Positions 38,077 through 52,147 of a DNA stretch of 64,000 nt are shown here, one piece after another. The DNA lies in NCBI GenBank assembly GCA_945786985.1, contig CALZGC010000131.1, positions 946-64,945 of the forward strand, given 5' to 3'. Positions within the stretch are counted from its first letter, which is position 1. Each line of letters opens with the position of its first letter. This DNA comes from an uncultured Nitrospirota bacterium (GTDB taxonomy: Bacteria > CG2-30-53-67). Position numbers and translations under genes: made by a program. The notes under the pieces were generated by a model. The model ran no database searches, was not told where the DNA came from, and was given only the letters and a program-made list of their open reading frames with translations.

Positions 38077-38259
38077 GCGGAGGCTCGCCGCGTGAAACAA
38101 GGCCGCGTGCGGCTGCGGCGGAGCGGTGGCCCCGGCACCGACACCTCCCGACGCCGGCGGACGCCGATGCACAGGGGCGTTCCACACGCTATGGGTTGAC
38201 ATAACGGCGGTTCTGACAAATAATAGGCCAGGGCTTTGGCGAGCTTTTGTACGGGAGCC

Positions 38260-40098
38260 ATGCAAAAACGAATCATCCTCCTGGTTATGCTCAGTATGCT
38301 GATCATTCTGGTCAGTCTCGGGATCATCAGTCAACTGAGCGTAAACAATTCTATTCAACGGTCTCTGGACAAACGGCTGACGCTGGCATCCATCATCAGC
38401 CGCTACTTCGACTACATCCTCGAGACCAACCTCACCCGGCTGTATGACATCTCCATCTCGGGACGGGTGGACTTTGCGGATCAGAACTGGGTGCCTGAAA
38501 CAAAGGCCCTCAAAACTGCTTACGAATATTCCATCTTTACGGATCGTATTTTTCTTCTCGACCAGCACGGCAATGTGGTGTTGAATTATCCCCTGCAGGA
38601 GAGCGGGAAGGTGAATCTCCTGAGCATCCCCGCGGTTAGTCGAGTCATGGCGGAGGGCAAGCCGGTGGTCTCCGATGTGTTCACCATGGAACCGACCAAA
38701 AAGAAAGTGATCCTGGCGCTCGTCCCCCTGAAGGATAGGAACGGAGAAAACATCGGTGTGGCCGGCGGGGAGATTAACCCCACGAATTATCTGTTCAACC
38801 AGATGATCAAGTCCATCCCGACGGAGACGGCCACCTGCATCGAACTCGTCGACAGTCAGGGAATCATTATTGCCTCCAACATCCCCAAACGGATTCTCAC
38901 CTGCAGCGACCACAACCAGTTTCTCGGCAAGCTCATCGCCGCACGCAAGAGTTCGGTGGGCACCTGTCACCGCTGCCACCTTGAAGAAGGCTCGCAGAAA
39001 CGTAAAACCAAGGACATGCTGGCCTTCTCACCGCTCTCTGTCGCCCCCTGGGGAATCTCTCTGCGGGAGCCCCAGGATTCGGTCTTCTCCCCAGCCATCA
39101 CCCTGAGACGCAATTTTGTCATCCTCGGCGTCATCGCCCTCGGTGCGGCCCTCGTCCTGGCTATGGGCATGAGCCGCAGCATCGTGCGGCCCATCCAGCT
39201 CCTCATTCAGGCATCCCAGCGGCTGGGGCGGGGAAATCTTCACGAACCCGTTGCCATCACGAGCCGGGACGAAACGGGAGTGCTGGCCGACAGTTTCGAA
39301 GTGATGCGACAGAAACTCGCAGCCTCCCTGGAGCGCATCCAGAAACAGAATCTCGAACTGGAGCAGCGGGTCCTGGACAGAACGGAAGAACTGGAGATGA
39401 GCCGCAAGAAGCTGGCCCGCCTGTACCGAAAGAACATTTCTGTACAGGAGGAAGAGCGCAAACGCATCGCCCGGGAGCTGCATGACGAAACGAGCCAGTC
39501 CCTGAATGCCGTCCTCATTTCCCTGGATACGCTCAACATCGTGTTGCATCAAAGCAATGCCAACCGCACCCATCTGGAAAAGCTGAGAAAAAATGTGGCC
39601 GCCACCCTTCAGGGGATACATCAACTCATCCAGGATCTCCGGCCACCCGTTCTGGACGATCTCGGTCTCGATTCGGCCATTCGGTGGGTGCTGGAGGGAC
39701 ATCTGGGCGCCAGGGGGATCGGCTATTTTTTTGAGACAGAGGGAGCATGCCCGAACACCTCCTCCAACGGCGGAACGGGGGCGGTCGATTGTGCCACCCT
39801 GGAACTGACGCTCTTCCGCGTCATCCAGGAGGCTGTCATCAACATTGAAAAGCACGCCGACGCCAAACATGTTTTTGTGTCGCTTGTCTTCCAAGAAGCC
39901 CATGTGGAGGTCGAAATCGAAGACGACGGGCGGGGGTTCGATGTAGATCGCGTCTACACCACAGTGGAGACGGCGCGCGATACCGGTTCTTTCGGTCTGC
40001 TTGGGATGCGGGAGCGGGTGGCCCTACTGGACGGGCGGCTCACCATCTGCTCGAGACCACATGAGGGGACCCATATCAGCATGACCATCCCCTTCTGA
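38260..40098 (+). CDS. Sensor histidine kinase, NarX/UhpB type (periplasmic Cache-like domain, HAMP, HisKA_3, HATPase)
   Basis: N-terminal TM, a ~270-aa periplasmic domain and a second TM, then HAMP and the HisKA_3 H-box EERKRIARELHDETSQ. 612 aa. RBS GGGAG. Confidence 0.8.
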   Translation: MQKRIILLVMLSMLIILVSLGIISQLSVNNSIQRSLDKRLTLASIISRYFDYILETNLTRLYDISISGRVDFADQNWVPETKALKTAYEYSIFTDRIFLLDQHGNVVLNYPLQESGKVNLLSIPAVSRVMAEGKPVVSDVFTMEPTKKKVILALVPLKDRNGENIGVAGGEINPTNYLFNQMIKSIPTETATCIELVDSQGIIIASNIPKRILTCSDHNQFLGKLIAARKSSVGTCHRCHLEEGSQKRKTKDMLAFSPLSVAPWGISLREPQDSVFSPAITLRRNFVILGVIALGAALVLAMGMSRSIVRPIQLLIQASQRLGRGNLHEPVAITSRDETGVLADSFEVMRQKLAASLERIQKQNLELEQRVLDRTEELEMSRKKLARLYRKNISVQEEERKRIARELHDETSQSLNAVLISLDTLNIVLHQSNANRTHLEKLRKNVAATLQGIHQLIQDLRPPVLDDLGLDSAIRWVLEGHLGARGIGYFFETEGACPNTSSNGGTGAVDCATLELTLFRVIQEAVINIEKHADAKHVFVSLVFQEAHVEVEIEDDGRGFDVDRVYTTVETARDTGSFGLLGMRERVALLDGRLTICSRPHEGTHISMTIPF

Positions 40099-40188
40099 AG
40101 CGACCGACCCGAAGCCCATCGTACATCCGGTGGCCACCGGACGAATCATCGTCAGCGCCCGACGCGGGTGTTGCAGAGAAGGGACGCC

Positions 40189-40839
40189 ATGCCCAAGACA
40201 CGCATTCTCGTCGCCGATGACCATGCCTTGGTGCGGGAGGGAGTCTCCGCCCTGCTGCAGTTGCAGGACGACATGGAGGTGGTGGGCGAAGCCTGCGACG
40301 GACGAGACGCAGTCCGGCTAACGGCAAAACTCAAACCGGACATCGTGCTGATGGACATCGCCATGCCGGGGCTGGGGGGTCTCGAAGCCACCACTGAACT
40401 CAGGAAAACCATGCCCGAGATCAGCATCCTCATCCTGAGCCAGTACGACGACCGCGAATACATCAGCAGGCTGCTCAAAGCGGGGGTGTCGGGCTATATA
40501 CTCAAACACGCGGTCGGCACGGACCTGGTATCGGCCATCCGGGCCGTGGCTCGGGGGGAGTTTTATCTCTACTCCGGTATCGCCTCATCCGTAATCGACG
40601 GCTTTCTCGACAGGAAACAGGCCTTTGCCGAGGACCCCTATGACAAGCTCACGGACCGGGAGAAACAGGTCCTCAAACTGATTGCCGAGGGAAACACCCA
40701 TAAGGAGATTGCCGAACTTCTCAACATCAGCACCAAGACCGTCATCGCCCATCAGACCCATCTTTCGGAGAAACTGGATATCCATTCCCGAGCGGAGCTC
40801 ATCAAGTTTGCCATTCGGAGAGGCATCATCAAAATCTGA
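40189..40839 (+). CDS. NarL/LuxR-family response regulator (REC + LuxR HTH)
   Basis: RILVADDHALVREG...D..MPGLGG REC domain and a C-terminal GNTHKEIAELLNISTKTV HTH. 216 aa. Confidence 0.85.
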   Translation: MPKTRILVADDHALVREGVSALLQLQDDMEVVGEACDGRDAVRLTAKLKPDIVLMDIAMPGLGGLEATTELRKTMPEISILILSQYDDREYISRLLKAGVSGYILKHAVGTDLVSAIRAVARGEFYLYSGIASSVIDGFLDRKQAFAEDPYDKLTDREKQVLKLIAEGNTHKEIAELLNISTKTVIAHQTHLSEKLDIHSRAELIKFAIRRGIIKI

Positions 40840-40840
40840 G

Positions 40841-41836
40841 ATGAATCTTTTTGACTTCCTGAACTCCTACGCCGGGATGTATCTCGTGCAGTCTTTCGTG
40901 CATTCGCTAATCACCGCCATCGTGGTGGACCGGGCGATCAATGCCTGGCGAATCGTGAACCCCCTCGTGATTCAACGCTTCCGGCTGCTGGTCATCCTGC
41001 TGCCGGTTCTCTCCTTTCCCCTCTTCCAGTGGATGCATCCCGAGCGCGGCGCCGTCGACTTTCGGCTTCGCGCACTCTTTGACAGCGCCCGATGGCTCAA
41101 TCTGGAGCTCTTCGGCGCGCTCTCGGTGCACCTACTCTTCGTGGGCTTGCTGCTCATTGCGGGCCTCGTCTTCCTCGTGCAGGAGCTGATCCCCTTGGTG
41201 CGACACACCTTTCTCTCGAAAAGATCTGCGGTTCCTCGAACCCCAGCCGACGAGCACGCACATGTGGCCCGAGCGCTGGAGGATCTTCCCGGGGAAAAGC
41301 CGGCGGTTTATCTCATGGACGATGATGCCTTCACGGTTCTTTCAACCACGGGAAGTGACTCGGCTATTTTTCTCTCCACGGGACTCCTGGAGGTCCTGAG
41401 CCCCTCACAGCTCCAGGCCGCCATCGCCCATGAGATGGCCCACATTCAACGGAGCAAGAGACCTCTGCTGGTAATCGTCTACCTTTTCCGCATACTCATG
41501 TTTCTCAACCCTGTTGTCCTGCTGGAATTTCGCAGAATCGCGCAGGAAGAGGAGAATATCTGTGACGACATGGCCGTATCCATGACCCGGAATCCCCGGG
41601 CTCTGGCGGATACCCTTCGGAATGTCTACGGGACCCAGCGGGATCCCGCGCCGGCGGGGCGCGGGAAACTGGCGGCCGTTAACGAGGCCCTGGAAGACTA
41701 CAGCCATCGGCTGCTGATCGAAAAAAGGATCAATCGGCTGACGGAAGCACGGAGCGACGGGGCACCGAAACGGGGTCGACTGGGCTGGGTGCTCACGGCT
41801 GCGGCCGTCTCGGTGATCAACTATTTTGTGGTTTGA
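40841..41836 (+). CDS. M56-family (BlaR1-like) membrane metallopeptidase
   Basis: Four N-terminal TM helices, the HEXXH motif AIAHEMAHIQR, and a C-terminal TM. The ATG lies 1 nt after the response-regulator TGA. 331 aa, with no large extracellular sensor domain. Confidence 0.7.
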   Translation: MNLFDFLNSYAGMYLVQSFVHSLITAIVVDRAINAWRIVNPLVIQRFRLLVILLPVLSFPLFQWMHPERGAVDFRLRALFDSARWLNLELFGALSVHLLFVGLLLIAGLVFLVQELIPLVRHTFLSKRSAVPRTPADEHAHVARALEDLPGEKPAVYLMDDDAFTVLSTTGSDSAIFLSTGLLEVLSPSQLQAAIAHEMAHIQRSKRPLLVIVYLFRILMFLNPVVLLEFRRIAQEEENICDDMAVSMTRNPRALADTLRNVYGTQRDPAPAGRGKLAAVNEALEDYSHRLLIEKRINRLTEARSDGAPKRGRLGWVLTAAAVSVINYFVV

Positions 41837-41855
41837 AGGAACCGGGGAACAACCG

Positions 41856-42383
41856 ATGCGAGATGCACTGCGAGGTCTCCTCTCTTTTGCCGCCATTTTG
41901 CTGGTTCTGCTGGCCGCCCTGAAGCTGCTCAACTGGGCGCCCACCGTGTTGGACCCGGGGGGCCTGCGGGAATATCCCAACGTCCCCGCGGTCAGGGCCG
42001 CGCTGCAGGTGCAGGACCTGCTGGTCCCGTCCTATTTTCCCGAACAGGTCCGCTGGCCTCCTCGCCGCATCCTTGCCCAGAGCAAACCCTACCCGGCCAT
42101 GGCCGTGACCTATGACGGGACGCACCAGGAGGAGACTGTCCTGCACACCACCCAGGCGGCGTCGGCCGAGTTTGCCCCCGAAACGGGGATTGCGCCCACC
42201 ACCCTGCGTGAAACCGTGCCCTACGACCTCAATGGCCGAGAAGCGATTCTGGAAGTGGGTGTGTGCAGCAACGGAGCGCCTTGCAGCCGCCTCACGTGGC
42301 AGCAGGATCGATACTGGATCAAAGTCGAGATGGTCTCGTCCCCGTTCGAGTTGATCAAGATCGCGCAAAGCATGCGTCCGTGA
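41856..42383 (+). CDS. Hypothetical signal-anchored periplasmic protein
   Basis: MRDALRGLLSFAAILLVLLAALKLL N-terminal anchor. 175 aa. Follows the M56 gene with a 19-bp gap. Confidence 0.4.
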   Translation: MRDALRGLLSFAAILLVLLAALKLLNWAPTVLDPGGLREYPNVPAVRAALQVQDLLVPSYFPEQVRWPPRRILAQSKPYPAMAVTYDGTHQEETVLHTTQAASAEFAPETGIAPTTLRETVPYDLNGREAILEVGVCSNGAPCSRLTWQQDRYWIKVEMVSSPFELIKIAQSMRP

Positions 42384-42655
42384 CATCGCCCCGGTGCGCA
42401 CACCCGTGCCCGCCACAGCCCATGGCAAGGAACCTCCAGGTACCCCTTCCCGGTTGACGCTGCCGCACAAAGGTGTCGTTTATTTGTATCAAGAACTGTA
42501 GAAGTGTTCGTGAATTAGAACAGATTCTCTCCTCGAAACACACTTTACATCGCGCCTAAGACAAAAATCACCTCAAAATAGGAACTTCTTCCAATTGTTG
42601 GGACCGCTCGTCTTCGATATAAATCAAACATAACATGGGAAAGGAGGTGAGCTTG

Positions 42656-43048
42656 ATGTTTAGATACAAAGGAGGCGATTGGGTAACAGAAGGCACGTAT
42701 TGGAACCTGGTCTCAGGAAGGCGGGTCGATGCCACGGGGGAGGGGTTGGCGCTTCCGGGCGCACGGAACCTCGTTTACCTTCGCATGCCCGCCGGCGTGA
42801 TGCTGCTGTCCGGCCCGCTGTTCGGGTTGTTGTACATCGTTTTTTTCCCAATGATCGGCATCGCCGCATTGAGCTTTTTCACGGTACGGGGGATTTTCAG
42901 AGGGGCCTTTGGCCTGTTGTCCAGGGCCATGTACTTTGAGTGGCGACCGGCCGAGGCCTATTTGGCCGGAAGAAAAAGGCGGTCCAAGAAACAGAAACAA
43001 GAGCAAGGGGACGGTTCGAAGCAGAAGGACAGCGAAGCGCAATCTTAA
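42656..43048 (+). CDS. Small two-TM membrane protein with basic C-terminal tail (paralog A)
   Basis: 130 aa. RBS AGGAGGTGA. Shares with the next gene a conserved hairpin-like hydrophobic core and the motif F(E/D)WRPxEAYLAG(R/K)K followed by a Lys/Glu-rich tail. Confidence 0.45.
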   Translation: MFRYKGGDWVTEGTYWNLVSGRRVDATGEGLALPGARNLVYLRMPAGVMLLSGPLFGLLYIVFFPMIGIAALSFFTVRGIFRGAFGLLSRAMYFEWRPAEAYLAGRKRRSKKQKQEQGDGSKQKDSEAQS

Positions 43049-43106: not shown

Positions 43107-43532
43107 ATGAATACCTATTTCGATTTCATCACACATGTCAAGGGGATTGAGTACCTCGTCGCCATCGGTTCCATTGTCGGATTCATCGTGCTCTGGGAGG
43201 TCCTGAAGCCCAAGCCCTTCTCCAAAATGGTGCACTCGGCCAAAGAGGATCTGACCTATATGAAAGCAGGCGGTTCCAGGCAGGCCCTCCGAAACGTGGG
43301 CAAACTGGTGAGTGCTCCCTTCATCGGACTGGCTTATGTGATCAGTCTACCCATTGCCTTTATGGGTGCCCTGCTTTTCGCCACCGTCAACGGCCTGATG
43401 AACTACGTCGGCCGGACCACCTCCTTCGATTGGCGGCCCATGGAAGCATACCTGGCCGGCAAAAAACACAAGAAGACAGAAGCCCGTGGAGAGGAAGAAA
43501 AGCCTGCGCCCAAGAAGACCGAGCAGGACTAG
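43107..43532 (+). CDS. Small two-TM membrane protein with basic C-terminal tail (paralog B)
   Basis: 141 aa. RBS GAGGAGGAGAAACC. Shares ...SFDWRPMEAYLAGKKHKK... with paralog A. Confidence 0.5.
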   Translation: MNTYFDFITHVKGIEYLVAIGSIVGFIVLWEVLKPKPFSKMVHSAKEDLTYMKAGGSRQALRNVGKLVSAPFIGLAYVISLPIAFMGALLFATVNGLMNYVGRTTSFDWRPMEAYLAGKKHKKTEARGEEEKPAPKKTEQD

Positions 43533-43570
43533 CCGTCATCCACACCCGATCAAAGAGGAGGTCATATCCC

Positions 43571-44044
43571 ATGGAAGCCACAAGAGCAATCCCCATTTTG
43601 ATTTGCGCCACCTTGCTGACGGCGGCCTTTGCTTCCTGGCTTTACGCCGGGGACACCGGCCCCGTGCCCCAACCGGGCGTAGTGACTCTGGACAGCCTGA
43701 GCGATCAGTACGAACCGGTGACCTTCGATCATGAGATGCACGTCATGGTCGCGGAGGAGTGCGCCCAATGCCACCATCAGCACGGAAGCCGGGTAACCCG
43801 GTCCTGCGGGGACTGTCACACCCTCAATTCGGAGGCCTTTAGACGCACAGCAGTCAACACGTTCACGCCTTGCCAGGACTGCCACGGCGAATACGATCCC
43901 GATACGCCGCAGATGCCGGGCCTCAAGGGAGCCTACCACCGCACCTGTTTCGCATGTCATCGCGGGATGGGGCAAGTCGGTCTGGACCCGACGGGTTGCA
44001 CCCAAATGTGCCACGCGAAGAGAGACCGGATGGCCGGAAAATGA
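43571..44044 (+). CDS. Periplasmic tetrahaem cytochrome c3-family protein
   Basis: Signal peptide, then four CxxCH (CAQCH, CGDCH, CQDCH, CFACH) plus one CxxxCH (CTQMCH). The VTFDHEMH context resembles c3 haem-1 regions. RBS AAAGAGGAGG. Confidence 0.75.
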   Translation: MEATRAIPILICATLLTAAFASWLYAGDTGPVPQPGVVTLDSLSDQYEPVTFDHEMHVMVAEECAQCHHQHGSRVTRSCGDCHTLNSEAFRRTAVNTFTPCQDCHGEYDPDTPQMPGLKGAYHRTCFACHRGMGQVGLDPTGCTQMCHAKRDRMAGK

Positions 44045-44101
44045 CGCGCAGAGTCCGCGGCCCCGCAAAGGCTGCGGTGTTTGCTGAAAGGAGGTTTCGC
44101 A

Positions 44102-45112
44102 ATGACACAGGAGAGACAAGAGAAGGGGGCCGGCGGCCTGCAGCACGGGGGGCGCCGTTCCGACAGCACGGATCAACCCCATGGACCGTGCGGCATCAAC
44201 CGCAGAGGCTTTCTCGGCGTCATGGGAGCGGTGAGCGGGTCGGCCCTGCTGGCCAGCGCCGCAGAGGTTCATGCATACAAGCAGTTCGAAGGATGGCCCG
44301 ATCGCTACGGCATGCTGTCCGACCTGACAGCCTGTGTGGGCTGCCGCAGCTGTGAACGGGCCTGCAACGAGGCCAACGGCCTGCCCAAACCGAAAAAGTC
44401 CTTTGACGACGGATCGGTTTTTGCCGAACTGCGGCGGACCGATGATAAAACTTACACCGTGGTCAATCGCTATGAAAACCCCGGGGACCCCGGGACGCCC
44501 GTCTATCGCAAGGTCCAGTGCATGCACTGCAACGAGCCGGCCTGCGCCACGGCCTGCCCTATCCATGCCTACTCCAAAACTCCCGAAGGGGCCGTCATGT
44601 ACGATCCGGACAAGTGTTTTGGTTGCCGGTACTGCATGGTGGCCTGCCCCTTCGGCATTCCGACCTATGACTACGAGAGTGCCTTTCAGCCCCGGATCTA
44701 CAAGTGCGTGCTGTGCTATGACCGCCTCAAGGTCGGCCAGATACCGGCCTGCGCCCAGGGTTGCCCGACGGAGGCCATTACCTTCGGGAAACGGTCCGAC
44801 CTGCTCCGACTCGCGCGAGAGAGGATCCTGGAACACCCGGATCGCTACATCGACCATATCTACGGAGAGCATGAAGCCGGGGGCACCAGCTGGCTCTATC
44901 TGTCGTCGGTCCCCTTCGGCCAACTCGATTTTCCCACCAACCTGCCGGACAGGCCGCTGGTGGAAGAGACCAAGGGATTTCTCTCCTCGGTGCCGGTGGT
45001 GTTTACCGTCTGGCCGGCCCTCTTCGGGATGATCTACGCGTCGGTTCGCCACCGCGATGCCTTGCAGGAAGAGCTGAAACAAGAGCAGGAAAAAGAGGAG
45101 GAGAGACAATGA
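44102..45112 (+). CDS. Tat-exported 4Fe-4S ferredoxin-type subunit (HmcB/DsrO/NrfC/PsrB-like)
   Basis: Twin-arginine motif RRGFLGVMGAVSG. Four Cys clusters (CVGCRSCERAC, CMHCNEPACATACP, CFGCRYCMVACP, CVLCYDRL..C..CP). RBS AAAGGAGG. Confidence 0.8.
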   Translation: MTQERQEKGAGGLQHGGRRSDSTDQPHGPCGINRRGFLGVMGAVSGSALLASAAEVHAYKQFEGWPDRYGMLSDLTACVGCRSCERACNEANGLPKPKKSFDDGSVFAELRRTDDKTYTVVNRYENPGDPGTPVYRKVQCMHCNEPACATACPIHAYSKTPEGAVMYDPDKCFGCRYCMVACPFGIPTYDYESAFQPRIYKCVLCYDRLKVGQIPACAQGCPTEAITFGKRSDLLRLARERILEHPDRYIDHIYGEHEAGGTSWLYLSSVPFGQLDFPTNLPDRPLVEETKGFLSSVPVVFTVWPALFGMIYASVRHRDALQEELKQEQEKEEERQ

Positions 45113-46347
45113 ACCATCATGAGACCGCTGTGAAAACTGATAACTTTCGGGCATGGTTCATGGACAAGCTGCTGATGGGGATGGACTGGCCGGACTATAT
45201 GCGACAGCTGATCACGCCGTTTAACATCATCGCCGCCATCATTCTCAGCATCGGTCTGCCGCTGATAGCCATCCGCTTCATCTACGGCCTGGCCTCGGTG
45301 ACGCACGCATCACAGGATTATCCCTGGGGGATCTTTCTCGGCTGGGGGCTCTTCGGGGGCGTGCCCCTCTCGGCCACAGGCTTTGTGTTGGCCACGGCCT
45401 ACTACATCTTCGGGTTCAAGAAGTACAAACCGCTGGTGCGGCTGGCCGTGCTCGCGGGTTTTCTGGGGTACCTCTTCGCCGTGATCTATCTGCTCTGCGA
45501 TCTGGGGCGGCCCTGGCGGATTTACTACCCCATGATCATCGGGTTCGGGACAGCCTCGGTCCTCTTTCTCGTGGCCTGGCATGTGGCCACCTATCTGACC
45601 GTGCAGTTCCTTGAGTTCAGCCCGGCCATCCTGGAGTGGCTCCAGTCCAAACGTATTCGCAAATGGGCCTTGAGTATCACCATTGCCATGACTATCGCCG
45701 GGATCATTCTCTCAACCCTGCACCAGTCGGCGCTGGGGGCCATGTTCCTTCTGGCGCCGGGGAAGATGCACCCGCTCTGGTATTCGTCCTATCTGCCGGT
45801 CCTCTTCCTCTGCTCGAGCATCTATGCGGCGCTGAGCATGGTCATTGTGGTGAGCACCCTGGCTGCCCGCTTCCTGAAAAAGGCCGCGGACCAGACGTTC
45901 CTGAGCAACCTGAATCCACTGACCTTGGGCCTGGGCAGGGGCGCCTCCCTGACGATGTACGTCTATTTCGTGCTTAAACTCATCAGCGTTGCCCACGATA
46001 ACAATTGGGCCCTGTTGGCAACGCCCTATGGCCAGTGGTTTCTCCTGGAGATCGTCGGCTTTGTGCTGCTGCCGGCCCTGATCCTGAGCCTCGGAGTCAA
46101 GACGGGCCGTGTCGGAATCGTCCGACTGGGAGCCTTCGCCGGTGCGCTCGGCATCGTGGTGAACCGTATCAACGTCTCCATGGTGGCACTCAATTGGAAC
46201 TTGCCGGACCATCTGCATCACATCGTTCCGCCCTGGCAGGAAGTCGCCATTGTCCTCGCCATCGCGACGATCCACGTTCTCGTCTTTCGCTGGATCCTGA
46301 TGCGCATGCCGGTGATTCGAGAGGCACCGGAGTACACGGACCATTAG
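45109..46347 (+). CDS. NrfD/PsrC/HmcC-family polytopic membrane quinone-interacting subunit
   Basis: 412 aa, about 10 TM helices, NrfD-like pattern. Its ATG overlaps the upstream TGA (ATGA coupling). Confidence 0.8.
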   Translation: MNHHETAVKTDNFRAWFMDKLLMGMDWPDYMRQLITPFNIIAAIILSIGLPLIAIRFIYGLASVTHASQDYPWGIFLGWGLFGGVPLSATGFVLATAYYIFGFKKYKPLVRLAVLAGFLGYLFAVIYLLCDLGRPWRIYYPMIIGFGTASVLFLVAWHVATYLTVQFLEFSPAILEWLQSKRIRKWALSITIAMTIAGIILSTLHQSALGAMFLLAPGKMHPLWYSSYLPVLFLCSSIYAALSMVIVVSTLAARFLKKAADQTFLSNLNPLTLGLGRGASLTMYVYFVLKLISVAHDNNWALLATPYGQWFLLEIVGFVLLPALILSLGVKTGRVGIVRLGAFAGALGIVVNRINVSMVALNWNLPDHLHHIVPPWQEVAIVLAIATIHVLVFRWILMRMPVIREAPEYTDH

Positions 46348-46520: not shown

Positions 46521-47966
46521 ATGCACGGACGAAAACAACTGATCGGGTGGCTCACCGCCTGCCTAATTCTCATCCAGCCTGCGATTACGCAAGCCACAGT
46601 CCCCGCAAGCCCCACGTCCGAAACCCAGAATTGCCTGGTCTGCCATGGCCGCGAACCGGCCGAAAAAGGCGGCATAGGCGAGGAACCGAGGGCGCCCTAC
46701 GTCGATATGGCCGCCCTGAAGACGTCCGCGCATCCCAACACCGCCTGCTCCGAATGCCACCGGGAGTTCGCATCGGGTAAACACCCGGACCCACGCTTTC
46801 GGGATGCACAGCAGCGGAAACTCCGGTATGCGTTGAAGTGCAGAGAATGCCATTCGGACGCGGAGATCACGCTGAAACCGATCCATGCCCGTCTGCTGGA
46901 GAACGCGCAGGAGGGGGATGCCCCCGTGTGTACCGACTGCCACGGCGCCCACAATGTCACTCCCATCTCGGGGGGGAAGGTCCTGCAGAGTGAGCGGCGT
47001 TACTGCCAGGGGTGTCATGAGCACCCCGTCACCACGGACCTCCGAAGCGGCGAGACTCTGATGCTGCAAACCGACTTAACGGTACTGGACGGGTCCGAGC
47101 ACCACATGCTCAGCTGCTCAGACTGCCATTTCGGCTTCTCCTCCCAGGAGCATCCGCAGCGCAATTTCCGAACATTGCGGGATTACGCGATCGCCTCCTC
47201 GGACAGCTGCAAGCGCTGCCACTTTGACAAACATACCCGCACGCTGGAGAGCATTCATTATGCCATCCTGAACCAAGGAAACCAGAGCGCGCCGGTCTGT
47301 ACCGACTGCCACGGCGCCCACGGGATTGCGGCCGTCGGCAAGGATCGCGCCTTTAGTGCGACACGCTGCAAGCAATGCCACGCGGCGGTTTATGAAACCT
47401 ACGCCCACAGCGTACACGGCAACGCCCTGATCAACGAGCGCAACCAGGACGTGCCGGTCTGCATCGACTGCCACCGGGCGCACGACATCGTCAATCCCCT
47501 GACCCTGGAATTTCACGACGGCATTCCCGACACTTGCGCCAACTGCCATTCCAACAAACGGATCATGGGCAAATACGGTCTTTCCACCGACGTGGTCAAG
47601 ACCTATCTCTCAGATTTCCACGGGGTCACCCTGAATTTCTACAGAAAACAGAAAGAAGCCCTTCTCAAACCCGGACGGCCCATCGCCGTCTGCACCGATT
47701 GCCACGGTACCCATGATATTGCCGGCGACGCCGATACGGATCCCCTGATTGTCAAGGGGCGCTTGCTGAAACGGTGTCAGAAGTGCCACCCCGATGCCAC
47801 AGAGAATTTCTCCGATGCCTGGCTGTCCCACTATGAGCCGACCCTGGAGAAGGCGCCGATCGTCTATCTGGTGAATCTGAGCTACAGGATTTTCCTGCCG
47901 GTGATGGTGGTGGGCCTGATCCTGCAGATACTGCTGCACATCTGGCGGTATGCGGTCAACCGCTGA
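46521..47966 (+). CDS. Multihaem cytochrome c (13 CxxCH motifs) with C-terminal membrane anchor
   Basis: Signal peptide. 13 CxxCH motifs including three CTDCHGxH repeats. C-terminal TM IFLPVMVVGLILQILLHIW. Confidence 0.85.
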   Translation: MHGRKQLIGWLTACLILIQPAITQATVPASPTSETQNCLVCHGREPAEKGGIGEEPRAPYVDMAALKTSAHPNTACSECHREFASGKHPDPRFRDAQQRKLRYALKCRECHSDAEITLKPIHARLLENAQEGDAPVCTDCHGAHNVTPISGGKVLQSERRYCQGCHEHPVTTDLRSGETLMLQTDLTVLDGSEHHMLSCSDCHFGFSSQEHPQRNFRTLRDYAIASSDSCKRCHFDKHTRTLESIHYAILNQGNQSAPVCTDCHGAHGIAAVGKDRAFSATRCKQCHAAVYETYAHSVHGNALINERNQDVPVCIDCHRAHDIVNPLTLEFHDGIPDTCANCHSNKRIMGKYGLSTDVVKTYLSDFHGVTLNFYRKQKEALLKPGRPIAVCTDCHGTHDIAGDADTDPLIVKGRLLKRCQKCHPDATENFSDAWLSHYEPTLEKAPIVYLVNLSYRIFLPVMVVGLILQILLHIWRYAVNR

Positions 47967-48003
47967 CCGCGCTCCTCAAGCGCGTGCAGCAACGGAGGCT
48001 ACT

Positions 48004-48762
48004 ATGAAGAACCGCAAAATAAACGGTGGAATGATCCGCCGCTTCAGCCCCCTGCGACTGGCCGAGCACTGGGTGAACGCAGGCGCCATCGCCGTTCTCG
48101 TGCTGACCGGGCTCGCACAGAAGTTCCACACCCTGGAGGCGTCCCAGTGGTTTGTGCTGCACCTGGGCGGCATCGATACGGTCCGCCTCATCCACCACAC
48201 GGCAGGCGTCGTGGTGATCCTGCTGACCCTGCAGCATATCTTGGCTACCTCCTTCCTGGTCGTCTTGCGAAAGGGGCAGCCCGGCATGTTGATCAACAAG
48301 AAGGATGTGGCCGATACGCTGGAAAACCTGCGGTACTACTTTGGACTGCGGCAGAGCCCGGCCCTCTGCGACCGATACGATTACAAGCAGAAGTTTGAGT
48401 ACTGGACGATCCTGACGGGCCAGATCCTGATGACCGTCTCCGGCCTCATTCTCTGGTTTCCGACGGTTGCGGCTCGCTTCCTGCCGGGCGAATTCATTCC
48501 GGCCGCCAAGGCGCTGCACACCAATGAAGCCCTGCTCATTTTCCTCCTCATCGCCGTCTGGCATATCTACAATGCCATCTTCAGCCCCGACGTCTTCCCC
48601 CTGGACACGAGCATCTTCACCGGTCGCATCTCACGGGAGCGGATGGTCCACGAACACCCCCTGGAGTTGGGAAGAATGGAGGGAATCCCTCTGGAGGCCG
48701 TTCTGAAAGAAAGACGGGAGGAGATGCACCTTCTGGACGCGGAGAGCCCCCTGCTGCACTAA
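48004..48762 (+). CDS. Di-haem cytochrome b membrane subunit (FdnI / NiFe-hydrogenase CybH-like)
   Basis: Four TM helices with conserved His (..AEHWVNAG.., ..LIHHTAG.., ..ALHTNEA.., ..WHIYN..). RBS ACGGAGG. Confidence 0.65.
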   Translation: MKNRKINGGMIRRFSPLRLAEHWVNAGAIAVLVLTGLAQKFHTLEASQWFVLHLGGIDTVRLIHHTAGVVVILLTLQHILATSFLVVLRKGQPGMLINKKDVADTLENLRYYFGLRQSPALCDRYDYKQKFEYWTILTGQILMTVSGLILWFPTVAARFLPGEFIPAAKALHTNEALLIFLLIAVWHIYNAIFSPDVFPLDTSIFTGRISRERMVHEHPLELGRMEGIPLEAVLKERREEMHLLDAESPLLH

Positions 48763-50185: not shown

Positions 50186-52147
50186 ATGCGAACATCCAAA
50201 TTTCCCGTGGCAGCGCATGCCATGCAAGCAGAGGGCTCCAAGCACGTGATCAGTCGCATTATTGATTTCATTACCTTTGTGGGGCTGCCCATCCGGAAGA
50301 AGTTTCTGCTCTTTTCCATCGGCGTCCTTTTCTGGTTCCTGGTCATCTTCGTGATGAGCGTGGCCACGCTGTACGACATCAACCGCCGCTCGACCAACAT
50401 CGTCGACTCCATCATTCCCCATGACCGCATCGCCCAGAAGACCACCCGAAAGCTGCAGAGTCTCCACGTGGATGCCGTGGAAATCACGGACGCCTCTAAC
50501 CTGGAGTTCGTAACGCAGCGCACAATGGTCTCAAAGTCCAGGCTGAAAGATATCGATACCTTTCTAGCCGCCTTCGCCCGCGGGGGCCGAGTCCATGACT
50601 ACTCCCGGGACACCGATGAGCTCATTGAAAGTTTCGAGGTCGTCCCGGTCACAGAATACGCAGAGGGCGCCAAGTATGTGCAGGAATTGTCAGGGCTGAT
50701 CGAGACACTGGGCCTCGCCTTCGACGAACTGGCCCGCGTCAAGGGGGAGCTGCTCCAAGGCAGGGAACCGGAGGCCGTTGCGTTGCCGGGGGTCTATCAG
50801 AAGTTGCAAAAGGATCTGGCCGCGGCGCGGACCCTGTCTAACGGCTTCTCCGCCAAGTCGGCCTATCTCTACCAAGTGCAGTCGCAGAAGATCAAAGACG
50901 CTGTGCACTGTACCTCGTCGGCCGTCGTCGTCGTGCTCGTGATCGCCACCTCCCTGCTGGCACTTTTTACCATCTGGATTTCCCGTTCACTGGCCAACCC
51001 CATCAACTCCATGATCAAGCAAATCCATGCCCTCGGTGAGGGCACAGCCGATTTGTCCCAGAAGATCACCGTTTCCACGAAAGACGAAATCGGAAAGCTC
51101 TCATCCGAGTTCAATGGACTCATGGAGTCGATTCACGGAATGGCCACTTTCAAGAAGGTGATCGAGGAAGACGATACCCTGGATGATGTCTACCATCGCC
51201 TGGGGCGGGAATTTCGTAATGTCGTCGGGTTGGAGGAGTTCATCATTTTTGAAGTCGAAAAGAACGCCAAGAAAATGAAGGCGGCCTACCCGTTCCTGCT
51301 GCCCCATGAGGAGATCCACTGTCACGAGGACATTCTGGTGAACTCCGATCTCTGCCGAGCCAGGAAGACGGGACACCAAGTCTCCTCCCTGAGCTATCCG
51401 GGCATGTGCAGACAGTTTCGCGCGGACACCGGGAAGGAACACATCTGCCTTCCCATGATCGTTGGAGGCAGCACGGGCGGCGTGGTCCAATTCCTCTTCG
51501 ATAAGAACGGGCGGGCGACGGTGCATACAGACGCCATCGACCGGAAAGTTTTTGCGGCAGCCCAATACATCCAGGAATCCCTTTCGGTGATCGAGGCCAA
51601 GAAGCTCATGAACACCCTGAGAGAGTCGGCCATCAAGGACTCCCTGACGGGGCTTTATAACCGACGTTTTCTGCAGGACTATACGGAAACCCTCGTCGCG
51701 GGAGCCTTGCGGCGCGGGAAAGCCATCGGCCTGATCATGTGCGACCTCGATTACTTCAAACAGGTCAACGACACCTACGGCCATGATGTGGGTGACGCCA
51801 TCCTTCGAGAAACGGCCGCGACCCTGACCGAGTGCGTCCGCAAGACGGATTTCGTGCTGCGCTTCGGAGGCGAGGAGTTTCTGGTTCTGCTCGTCGATGT
51901 GGAAGAGGGAGAAGCGCTCACAATCGCCGAGAAGATCCGCACGACCTTGGCCGCCAAAAAACTCAAGGTTCCCGACGGCACCCTAACGAAAACCATCAGC
52001 CTCGGCGTCAGCGAGTTCCCCACCGACACCGAGGGCATCTGGCAGGCCATCAAGTACGCCGACGTGGCCCTCTACGAGGCGAAGCACCGCGGCAGGAACC
52101 TGACGGTTCGATTCGCATCCGAGATGTGGACCGAGGCAAAGTTCTAG
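50186..52147 (+). CDS. GGDEF diguanylate cyclase with N-terminal TM/HAMP and GAF-like sensor region
   Basis: RFGGEEF active site with an RxxD I-site upstream. Two TM helices and a HAMP. 653 aa. Confidence 0.8.
   Translation: MRTSKFPVAAHAMQAEGSKHVISRIIDFITFVGLPIRKKFLLFSIGVLFWFLVIFVMSVATLYDINRRSTNIVDSIIPHDRIAQKTTRKLQSLHVDAVEITDASNLEFVTQRTMVSKSRLKDIDTFLAAFARGGRVHDYSRDTDELIESFEVVPVTEYAEGAKYVQELSGLIETLGLAFDELARVKGELLQGREPEAVALPGVYQKLQKDLAAARTLSNGFSAKSAYLYQVQSQKIKDAVHCTSSAVVVVLVIATSLLALFTIWISRSLANPINSMIKQIHALGEGTADLSQKITVSTKDEIGKLSSEFNGLMESIHGMATFKKVIEEDDTLDDVYHRLGREFRNVVGLEEFIIFEVEKNAKKMKAAYPFLLPHEEIHCHEDILVNSDLCRARKTGHQVSSLSYPGMCRQFRADTGKEHICLPMIVGGSTGGVVQFLFDKNGRATVHTDAIDRKVFAAAQYIQESLSVIEAKKLMNTLRESAIKDSLTGLYNRRFLQDYTETLVAGALRRGKAIGLIMCDLDYFKQVNDTYGHDVGDAILRETAATLTECVRKTDFVLRFGGEEFLVLLVDVEEGEALTIAEKIRTTLAAKKLKVPDGTLTKTISLGVSEFPTDTEGIWQAIKYADVALYEAKHRGRNLTVRFASEMWTEAKF

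Follow-up and report, generated by a model that had tools for sequence, protein, structure and literature searches.

Zinc metalloproteases of the M56 family are understood almost wholly through BlaR1 and its repressor BlaI: all characterised members act on BlaI-type repressors, and of ~15,000 M56 proteins ~6% carry a penicillin-binding domain while ~96% have a BlaI-like gene within five genes (PMC13492132). Atypical BlaIR pairs lacking a transpeptidase domain comprise BlaIR of M. tuberculosis and M. abscessus, CenIR of C. difficile and PvmSR of P. aeruginosa (PMC13492132; bioRxiv 10.64898/2026.08.03.742534). Here we analyse 64,000 nt of contig CALZGC010000131.1 from an uncultured Nitrospirota bacterium (the whole stretch is termed the window), in which an M56 gene (nt 40841-41836, + strand) is followed by the gene of an uncharacterised periplasmic protein, P4 (41856-42383, +), and preceded by those of a sensor histidine kinase (HK; 38260-40098, +) and a response regulator (RR; 40189-40839, +). 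We propose, with a probability of roughly 0.4, that these four genes make up the regulatory section of a respiratory cluster in Nitrospirota (Thermodesulfovibrionia-like), acting as a four-component unit with a split BlaR1-like sensor-protease. The atypical BlaIR pairs are the closest known systems, from which this M56 family differs by its lack of BlaI, its P4 partner and its link to a two-component system and respiratory cytochromes. A literature search found no description of the cluster or of BlaI-less M56 systems.

All four open reading frames are present as the sequence-only reading had listed them, and its identification of the third as a 331-residue M56 metallopeptidase with a BlaR1-type core is borne out. 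The protein matches Pfam Peptidase_M56 (PF05569) at 40.2 bits (cut-off 31), over profile positions 175-257 of 296 only, and scores 21 bits against NCBIfam blaR1_generic (cut-off 400). Its HEMAH motif occupies residues 197-201. In an alignment of 22 diverse orthologues, H197, E198 and H201 (HEXXH) and E238 and D242 (EXXXD) are invariant, as are many residues of the loop at 66-95 and the C-terminal ...NYFVV. HEXXH is kept and internal stops are absent in 76 of 76 full-length orthologues from genome loci, so that the gene is intact and under selection and is not a pseudogene in relatives. A database search returned >200 relatives, nearly all of 316-347 residues and from Nitrospirota metagenome-assembled genomes (MAGs).

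The AlphaFold2 model of the M56 protein (predicted local distance difference test score (pLDDT) 75, predicted template-modelling score (pTM) 0.72) has helices at residues 10-35, 41-65, 96-126 and 312-330, with a globular HEXXH domain between the third transmembrane helix (TM3) and the C-terminal one (TM4) and a disordered loop at 265-281. Foldseek searches of the PDB ranked cryo-EM structures of S. aureus BlaR1 first (8exp, 8exs and 8exq; E 5e-4 to 9e-4, TM-score ~0.44, a moderate similarity), the best being 8exp_A with E 5e-4 over 324 aligned columns; a soluble M48-like peptidase, BepA and HtpX came next. By analogy with BlaR1, we take the protease domain to be cytoplasmic and the loop at 66-95 and the C terminus to be periplasmic, and we assume that the variable, low-confidence loop at 265-281 corresponds to the position of the BlaR1 autocleavage loop. 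The mean column conservation of the periplasmic loop (0.75) equals or exceeds that of the protease core (0.72), and a loop conserved like the catalytic core points to a conserved periplasmic interaction. An extracellular domain is absent, since the protein stops at its C-terminal transmembrane helix (...INYFVV). In the model, M56 is thus a BlaR1-like protease that appears to end exactly where the BlaR1 sensor domain would start. The missing penicillin-binding or sensor domain was correctly read from the sequence; it is the ordinary state of the family, given the ~6% figure cited above.

The M56 ATG (40841) lies 1 nt past the RR stop codon (TGA, 40837-40839), as first described. A public protein identical to the M56 product (P0001) is 342 residues long; its translation would have to begin at a TTG (40808) within the regulator gene. 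The ATG at 40841 (331 residues) is favoured because orthologues keep the N terminus MN(L/I)....

P4 is a 175-residue protein with a single N-terminal hydrophobic helix (residues 1-32), in agreement with its earlier description as signal-anchored. It exposes ~7 residues to the cytoplasm, and its N-terminal 30 residues are its least conserved part. P4 has no Pfam, NCBIfam or PDB sequence match (Pfam and PDB profile searches, even at E = 10). A profile search of 1.84 billion representatives at 50% clustering recovered a family of 275 representatives, all of ≤199 residues. AlphaFold2 predicts, with a pLDDT of 90.5, a long N-terminal helix that leads into an antiparallel sheet of seven strands with two helices. 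Foldseek gave weak PDB matches to PA0094/EagT6 (DUF1795), the N-terminal domain of RseB/MucB and PsbP, and a fold assignment through any of these was dropped, E values of 0.02-0.6 being too weak. Conserved motifs are PSYFP, WPP, ILAQ and SPFELIKIAESM. A Cys137/Cys143 pair is frequent and not universal: at least five orthologues (L002, L013, L030, L040 and L043) lack one or both cysteines, and the pattern is matched by fewer than half of the wider family representatives. The pair as a universal redox switch was rejected.

The conserved setting of M56 and P4 was examined by a scan that kept one genome per species and yielded 80 loci, with M56 orthologues 35-79% identical; gene order was determined by tblastn with all window proteins, and counts are restricted to loci with enough sequence (73 for P4; 51 with ≥6.5 kb for the 13-haem cytochrome). 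Nearly all loci come from Nitrospirota / Thermodesulfovibrionales MAGs, with a few labelled Gammaproteobacteria, Steroidobacteraceae or Deferrimicrobia. The recurring order is M56-P4-(sm)n-(cytA-HmcB-HmcC)-cyt481-cytb-HK-RR, where sm denotes small membrane proteins, cyt481 a 13-haem cytochrome c and cytb a cytochrome b. P4 directly follows M56 in 72 of 73 testable loci, and the exception, L062, carries a deletion. Cyt481 comes after M56-P4 in 46 of 51 loci; of the five where it does not, three have expanded sm arrays, one (L022) has a divergently transcribed paralogous cytochrome pair and one (L050) a frameshifted M56 gene. In 25 loci HK comes after the cytochrome b gene, 3-7 kb downstream of M56, with RR next wherever the sequence reaches. 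This synteny is kept at 35-50% protein identity over ~80 genomes, and the minimal conserved set comprises M56-P4, the operator and promoter described below, the 13-haem cytochrome c, cytochrome b and HK-RR, the rest being optional.

HK-RR stands immediately upstream of M56 only in the window, in its close relative L001 and in L079, and the window cluster ends at the cytochrome b gene, with a convergent YbaK-like gene next. Because 25 loci keep HK-RR after cytochrome b, the pair has been relocated from the 3' to the 5' end of the cluster in the window lineage, and this relocation makes a single HK-RR-M56-P4 operon there. The sequence-only reading had described all four genes as a translationally coupled unit. 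HK-RR, M56, P4 and the small-membrane and cytochrome genes do form one conserved cluster; the RR-M56 coupling is specific to the lineages of the window, L001 and L079. For two further orthologues, gene calls made independently confirm the order and place M56 and P4 either abutting or with a 4-nt overlap, so that the conserved translational coupling is that of M56 to P4 and not that of RR to M56. A sigma-70-like promoter (TTGACA-17 nt-AATAAT, 38196-38224, +) precedes HK-RR-M56-P4; it is a pattern match only, with 11 of 12 matches in a consensus scan. No terminator-like site was found 3' of P4 in the window.

In the orthologous loci P4 is invariably followed by a spacer of 145 nt or more. In the window this region (42384-42650), already singled out from the sequence as AT-richer and promoter-like, has a G+C content of 0.52-0.54 against ~0.64 in its flanks, and it holds a conserved operator and −10 box with the look of a regulated promoter. 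The operator, GAnAAAnTnCC-N5-AAATAGGAAnTTCTTCCAATTG (42560-42597, +), is conserved across loci and is followed after ~17-20 nt by TGnTATAnT, at a fixed distance that is maintained though the proteins are only 40-50% identical. The proximal inverted repeat of the window reads ATAGGAA (42578-42584), CTTC, TTCCAAT (42589-42595) and touches the −35 of a putative activator-dependent promoter (42595-42623, +), which consists of a weak −35 (TTGTTG, 42595-42600), a 17-nt spacer and a −10 (TATAAA, 42618-42623). Several loci also have a perfect upstream palindrome, TTCCTAT-N4-ATAGGAA. The repeat centre lies ~43 bp upstream of the predicted transcription start, so the layout would correspond to a class-II activator geometry.

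A position weight matrix (PWM) of the operator was built from 39 sites. Its core has a sole match when the whole 64-kb window is scanned, with a score of 36.3, where 20 shuffles gave at most 14.6. In the 80 loci, 59 of 63 core matches lie between P4 and the next gene (51 of the 59 on the + strand), and none was found upstream of M56 or HK; operator-driven autoregulation or co-regulation of M56 or HK was discarded for lack of matches there. M56-P4 therefore occupies a typical regulator position, outside the operator-controlled unit and immediately upstream of it. The TACCCCT at 42441-42447, which the sequence-only reading called NarL-heptamer-like, is a chance match: the closest relative (L001) does not have it, it shows no conservation, and a count of NarL-type heptamers over 60 orthologous intergenic regions gave 29 where 22 were expected, a number near chance. 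In the 300 nt upstream of M56 in those loci among L002-L080 where M56 comes first, TGGCACG- and CTGGCAAC-type words and GCTATAAT-type −10 boxes are enriched; these could be sigma-54-type or other promoter elements for M56-P4.

The kinase has two hydrophobic segments (residues 1-32 and 280-309) on either side of a dCache_1 domain (57 bits), giving the order TM1, periplasmic dCache_1, TM2, HAMP, HisKA_3 and HATPase_c, and RR combines a receiver domain (Response_reg, 97 bits) with a GerE/LuxR-type helix-turn-helix (70 bits) of the NarL/FixJ family. The first description of the pair as NarX/NarL-type holds for the kinase core and the output domain and fails beyond them: HK scores 99 bits against NarQ (NCBIfam cut-off 553) and 82 against NarX (cut-off 578), with only the kinase core matched, RR scores 158 bits against the NarL equivalog (cut-off 250), and the sensory part is a CXXCH-bearing dCache_1 domain. 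This haem-c motif (CHRCH, residues 236-240, ~nt 38965-38979) lies near the membrane-proximal end of the domain. Among 16 orthologous kinases, 11 have CXXCH at this alignment position and the other 5 have C[RS]H[GR][FY] (L063 differs further).

Haem-c periplasmic sensor domains have been described in the sCache_haem/DUF3365 family and in Geobacter GSU0582 and GSU0935 (PMC12889525, PMC3460858). HK resembles them in placing CXXCH inside a periplasmic Cache-type domain and in coming from a phylum where such sensors are common, and differs in that the domain is dCache_1 and not DUF3365 (Pfam gives dCache_1 only, and sCache_haem, PF11845, is not matched), in that the motif is replaced in 5 of 16 orthologues, and in that its haem binding is predicted. 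The motif suggests that HK uses haem c to sense redox state or a gas, as a type separate from the sCache_haem family.

RR orthologues are 61-69% identical, with a nearly invariant recognition helix. As the sole DNA-binding protein conserved in the cluster, and with its recognition helix nearly invariant, RR is the obvious candidate, we infer, for binding the operator. The 6-4-6 layout of the operator recalls the sites of another NarL-family regulator, NreC, which reportedly read TAGGG-N4-CCCTA.

The absence of a BlaI/MecI-type repressor partner, noticed at the outset from the sequence, extends to the orthologous loci. In the window, Pfam detected nothing BlaI-like among the five genes flanking M56 on each side. 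A Pfam survey of 76 small open reading frames up to 5 kb upstream of M56 in 41 loci showed no recurrent Penicillinase_R among the best 25 of 42 families, and precomputed Pfam annotation of four independently annotated loci contained none within 10 kb on either side. Clustering of the open reading frames in the 3 kb upstream of M56 over the loci gave variable neighbours (opposite-strand NUDIX, Rieske plus cytochrome b, enolase and GH57), and a conserved BlaI-like frame upstream of M56 was rejected, only such neighbours having recurred. Since ~96% of M56 proteins have a BlaI neighbour, the BlaI-less state of this family is unusual (~4%), and the family falls in that rare remainder.

The proposed circuit would work as follows. 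HK, by way of a dCache domain that probably bears haem c, would detect a redox or ligand signal in the periplasm and would phosphorylate the LuxR/NarL-type RR; RR would then bind the ATAGGAA-N4-TTCCAAT repeats and activate the cytochrome operon from its weak −35 promoter. We infer that M56 and P4 form a complex, a two-subunit BlaR1-like transmembrane sensor-protease in which P4, acting in trans, would stand in for the periplasmic domain found in cis in BlaR1. P4 probably docks on the periplasmic loop and C terminus of M56, and the zinc protease would cleave a component of the circuit other than BlaI, the candidate substrates being RR, HK and M56 itself. A regulatory rather than a housekeeping role is modestly favoured by the position of M56-P4 outside the operator-controlled unit, by its fusion with the regulators in the window lineage, by the BlaR1 architecture and by the conserved periplasmic face. 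A more specific version, in which M56-P4 feeds into the two-component pathway by cleaving RR (releasing or destroying its DNA-binding domain) or HK, would place the operon under joint control by phosphorylation and proteolysis, a previously undescribed design; we consider it unlikely.

Several points weigh against the proposal of a split sensor-protease. The label of sensor for P4 is an analogy only, because its fold has no significant match (best E 0.02), and none of the 275 P4 family representatives is fused to M56 or to another signalling domain. The loss of the cysteine pair in several orthologues makes a general thiol switch unlikely. No covariation was detectable between the RR recognition helix and operator variants, a test that is uninformative because the helix is nearly invariant. 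A BlaI-type repressor might be encoded elsewhere in the genome, the surveys having covered 5-10 kb around the genes and the best 25 of 42 families. The M56 protein also exceeds the Pfam threshold for Peptidase_M48 (PF01435; 35.5 bits, cut-off 20.3), and M48 relatives such as HtpX are quality-control proteases.

This last point bears on the most serious competitor, which we regard as somewhat unlikely: M56-P4 would be an HtpX/Ste24/BepA-like protease dedicated to the biogenesis or quality control of the membrane-bound cytochrome complex, with P4 as its periplasmic adaptor or chaperone, and HK-RR alone would regulate the operon. The best PDB sequence match of the M56 protein is HtpX (3cqb, E 1.7e-5), and the annotations of its relatives vary from M48, M56 and 'BlaR1-like' to HtpX and 'Zn-dependent protease with chaperone function'. 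Its gene is strictly linked to membrane cytochrome genes, a repressor partner was not found nearby, and the frameshifted M56 gene of L050 stands in a locus without cytochrome genes. M56-P4 lies outside the operator unit, however, and so would not be co-induced with its supposed clients; its fold and transmembrane topology match BlaR1 rather than HtpX, and with the best HtpX equivalog the M56 protein reaches 43.9 bits (cut-off 355). The window lineage, moreover, has M56-P4 co-transcribed with regulators and not with structural genes, and the sm proteins are not obligatory clients, since about nine loci are without them.

A canonical BlaR-type pathway, with a BlaI/MecI/CopY-family repressor encoded elsewhere and acting in trans, would follow the precedent of every characterised M56 protease and of the ~96% with a BlaI neighbour, from which conserved chemistry would be expected. 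It is improbable here, given the surveys in which no recurrent Penicillinase_R appeared (5 kb upstream in 41 loci, among the best 25 of 42 families, or 10 kb either side in four loci), the variable region upstream of M56, and a 7-4-7 repeat abutting a weak −35, which looks activator-type and not like a repressor site over the promoter core.

The sequence-only reading had also suggested that M56 may process P4, in which case cutting of the membrane anchor would free the periplasmic domain or switch it on. In favour are the obligate adjacency and translational coupling of the two genes, and the P4 anchor would share the membrane with the transmembrane helices of M56. Against this, we take the gluzincin site of BlaR1-type enzymes (8EXP) to face the cytoplasm, to which P4 exposes only its ~7 residues, and no conserved cleavage-like motif is evident in the anchor; we judge such processing very improbable. 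A fortuitous adjacency, with M56 an unrelated housekeeping gene or a decaying fragment as in L062 (M56 truncated and joined to part of HmcC) or the frameshifted L050, is refuted by the synteny over ~80 genomes and the 76 of 76 intact HEXXH motifs without stops, and its probability is close to negligible.

If M56-P4 is the split sensor-protease proposed here, the BlaR1 protease module can be rewired to another type of transcription factor, with the sensor supplied in trans. The locus shares with BlaR1/BlaI and MecR1/MecI of Staphylococcus and Bacillus an M56 domain between TM3 and TM4, the HEXXH and EXXXD motifs and a position beside the promoter presumably controlled. Unlike BlaR1 and MecR1, this M56 protein has no C-terminal penicillin-binding domain, no nearby BlaI and a separate partner in P4, and the cluster uses a phosphorylation-dependent LuxR/NarL-type regulator with respiratory cytochromes as targets. 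Like the atypical BlaIR systems it has an M56 protease without a beta-lactam sensor, whereas those keep an adjacent BlaI-family repressor and none has been described with a P4-like partner or a two-component system. The M48 proteases HtpX, Ste24 and BepA match it in the HEXXH region and likewise have no repressor partner, but its topology and fold follow BlaR1, and it is dedicated to one cluster and is not a general stress gene.

LiaFSR and VraTSR are systems of a HisKA_3 kinase and a NarL-family regulator with membrane accessory proteins. As in these, HK and RR are encoded with extra membrane proteins that could modulate signalling; the accessories in this cluster, a metalloprotease and a beta-rich periplasmic protein, have no relation to LiaF or VraT, and HK has a large dCache sensor and is not intramembrane-sensing.

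Downstream of the operator, two paralogous small membrane proteins are encoded by sm1 (42656-43048, +) and sm2 (43107-43532, +). The true start of sm1 is likely the ATG at 42656 and not the mechanically called ATG at 42635, because AAGGAGG lies at 42641-42647 and homology begins at query residue 8. The N terminus of Sm2 is HmcD-like (DVU_0533-like), with 23 bits against NCBIfam HmcD (cut-off 34) and a weak PF28260 match in an orthologue. Clusters with sm genes have one to six copies. Both window proteins share a C-terminal (F/S)xWRPxEAYLAGxK motif and a Lys/Glu-rich tail, and two to six tandem copies occur in L015, L018, L035, L056 and L081. In L081 an opposite-strand block (Zn_ribbon_8, Nitro_FeMo-Co and DUF134) lies between sm copies.

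An optional Hmc/Nhc-like module follows (43568-46347, +), identified with NCBIfam and Pfam and missing in about a third of the orthologous clusters. It encodes a tetrahaem c3-type cytochrome (43568-44044, +), an HmcB-like FeS protein (44102-45112, +; 409 bits against HmcB, cut-off 420) and an HmcC/NrfD-like membrane protein (45109-46347, +; 442 bits against HmcC, cut-off 550). HmcA reaches 53 bits (NCBIfam cut-off 400), and no HmcE or HmcF gene was found in the cluster; the module is Hmc-like only and is not the six-subunit Hmc complex. The core pair comes last, a 13-haem cytochrome c with a C-terminal transmembrane helix (cyt481; 46521-47966, +) and a cytochrome b of the Ni_hydr_CYTB family (47950-48762, +).

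The Desulfovibrio hmc operon encodes its own regulators, rrf1 and rrf2, and CbcL-type proteins of Geobacter are quinol-linked cytochromes. The cluster is like hmc in its HmcB-, HmcC- and HmcD-like genes and in having regulators at the operon end, and unlike it in lacking HmcA, HmcE and HmcF and in its regulators, a different two-component system plus M56-P4. Its multihaem cytochromes are taken to be quinone-linked, and the pair of multihaem c and FdnI/HydC-type cytochrome b resembles a split CbcL. The subsurface and sediment Nitrospirota (Thermodesulfovibrionia) in which this respiratory module is widespread are mostly uncultured, their electron-transfer pathways are poorly understood, and the cluster offers a defined operator, a promoter and a candidate regulator for it. 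A paper on a multihaem selenoprotein (PMC13510729) was set aside as irrelevant to the cluster, that protein having five haems and belonging to a different family.

Full clusters with M56-P4 also occur in MAGs labelled Gammaproteobacteria, Steroidobacteraceae and Candidatus Deferrimicrobia (L060, L071, L074 and L052), which could reflect horizontal transfer of the whole module or mis-binning. Three loci appear decayed or error-laden: L062 (7001-11190), where the truncated M56 joined to the HmcC fragment is accompanied by a split RR; L050 (7001-7989), where M56 is frameshifted and the cytochrome genes are absent downstream; and L073 (10949-13715), where the HmcC and cytochrome genes are fragmented. 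These defects could be real pseudogenes or indel errors of long-read assembly.

A second pair of multihaem cytochrome and cytochrome b, 25-34% identical to the window pair and transcribed divergently from M56, is present on the minus strand in L022 (4946-6527) and L074 (4931-6715); L022 has no other cytochrome pair near M56-P4. In the window, nt 50186-52147, ~1.4 kb past the end of the cluster and beyond the convergent YbaK-like gene, encode a HAMP-GGDEF diguanylate cyclase whose N-terminal region is large.

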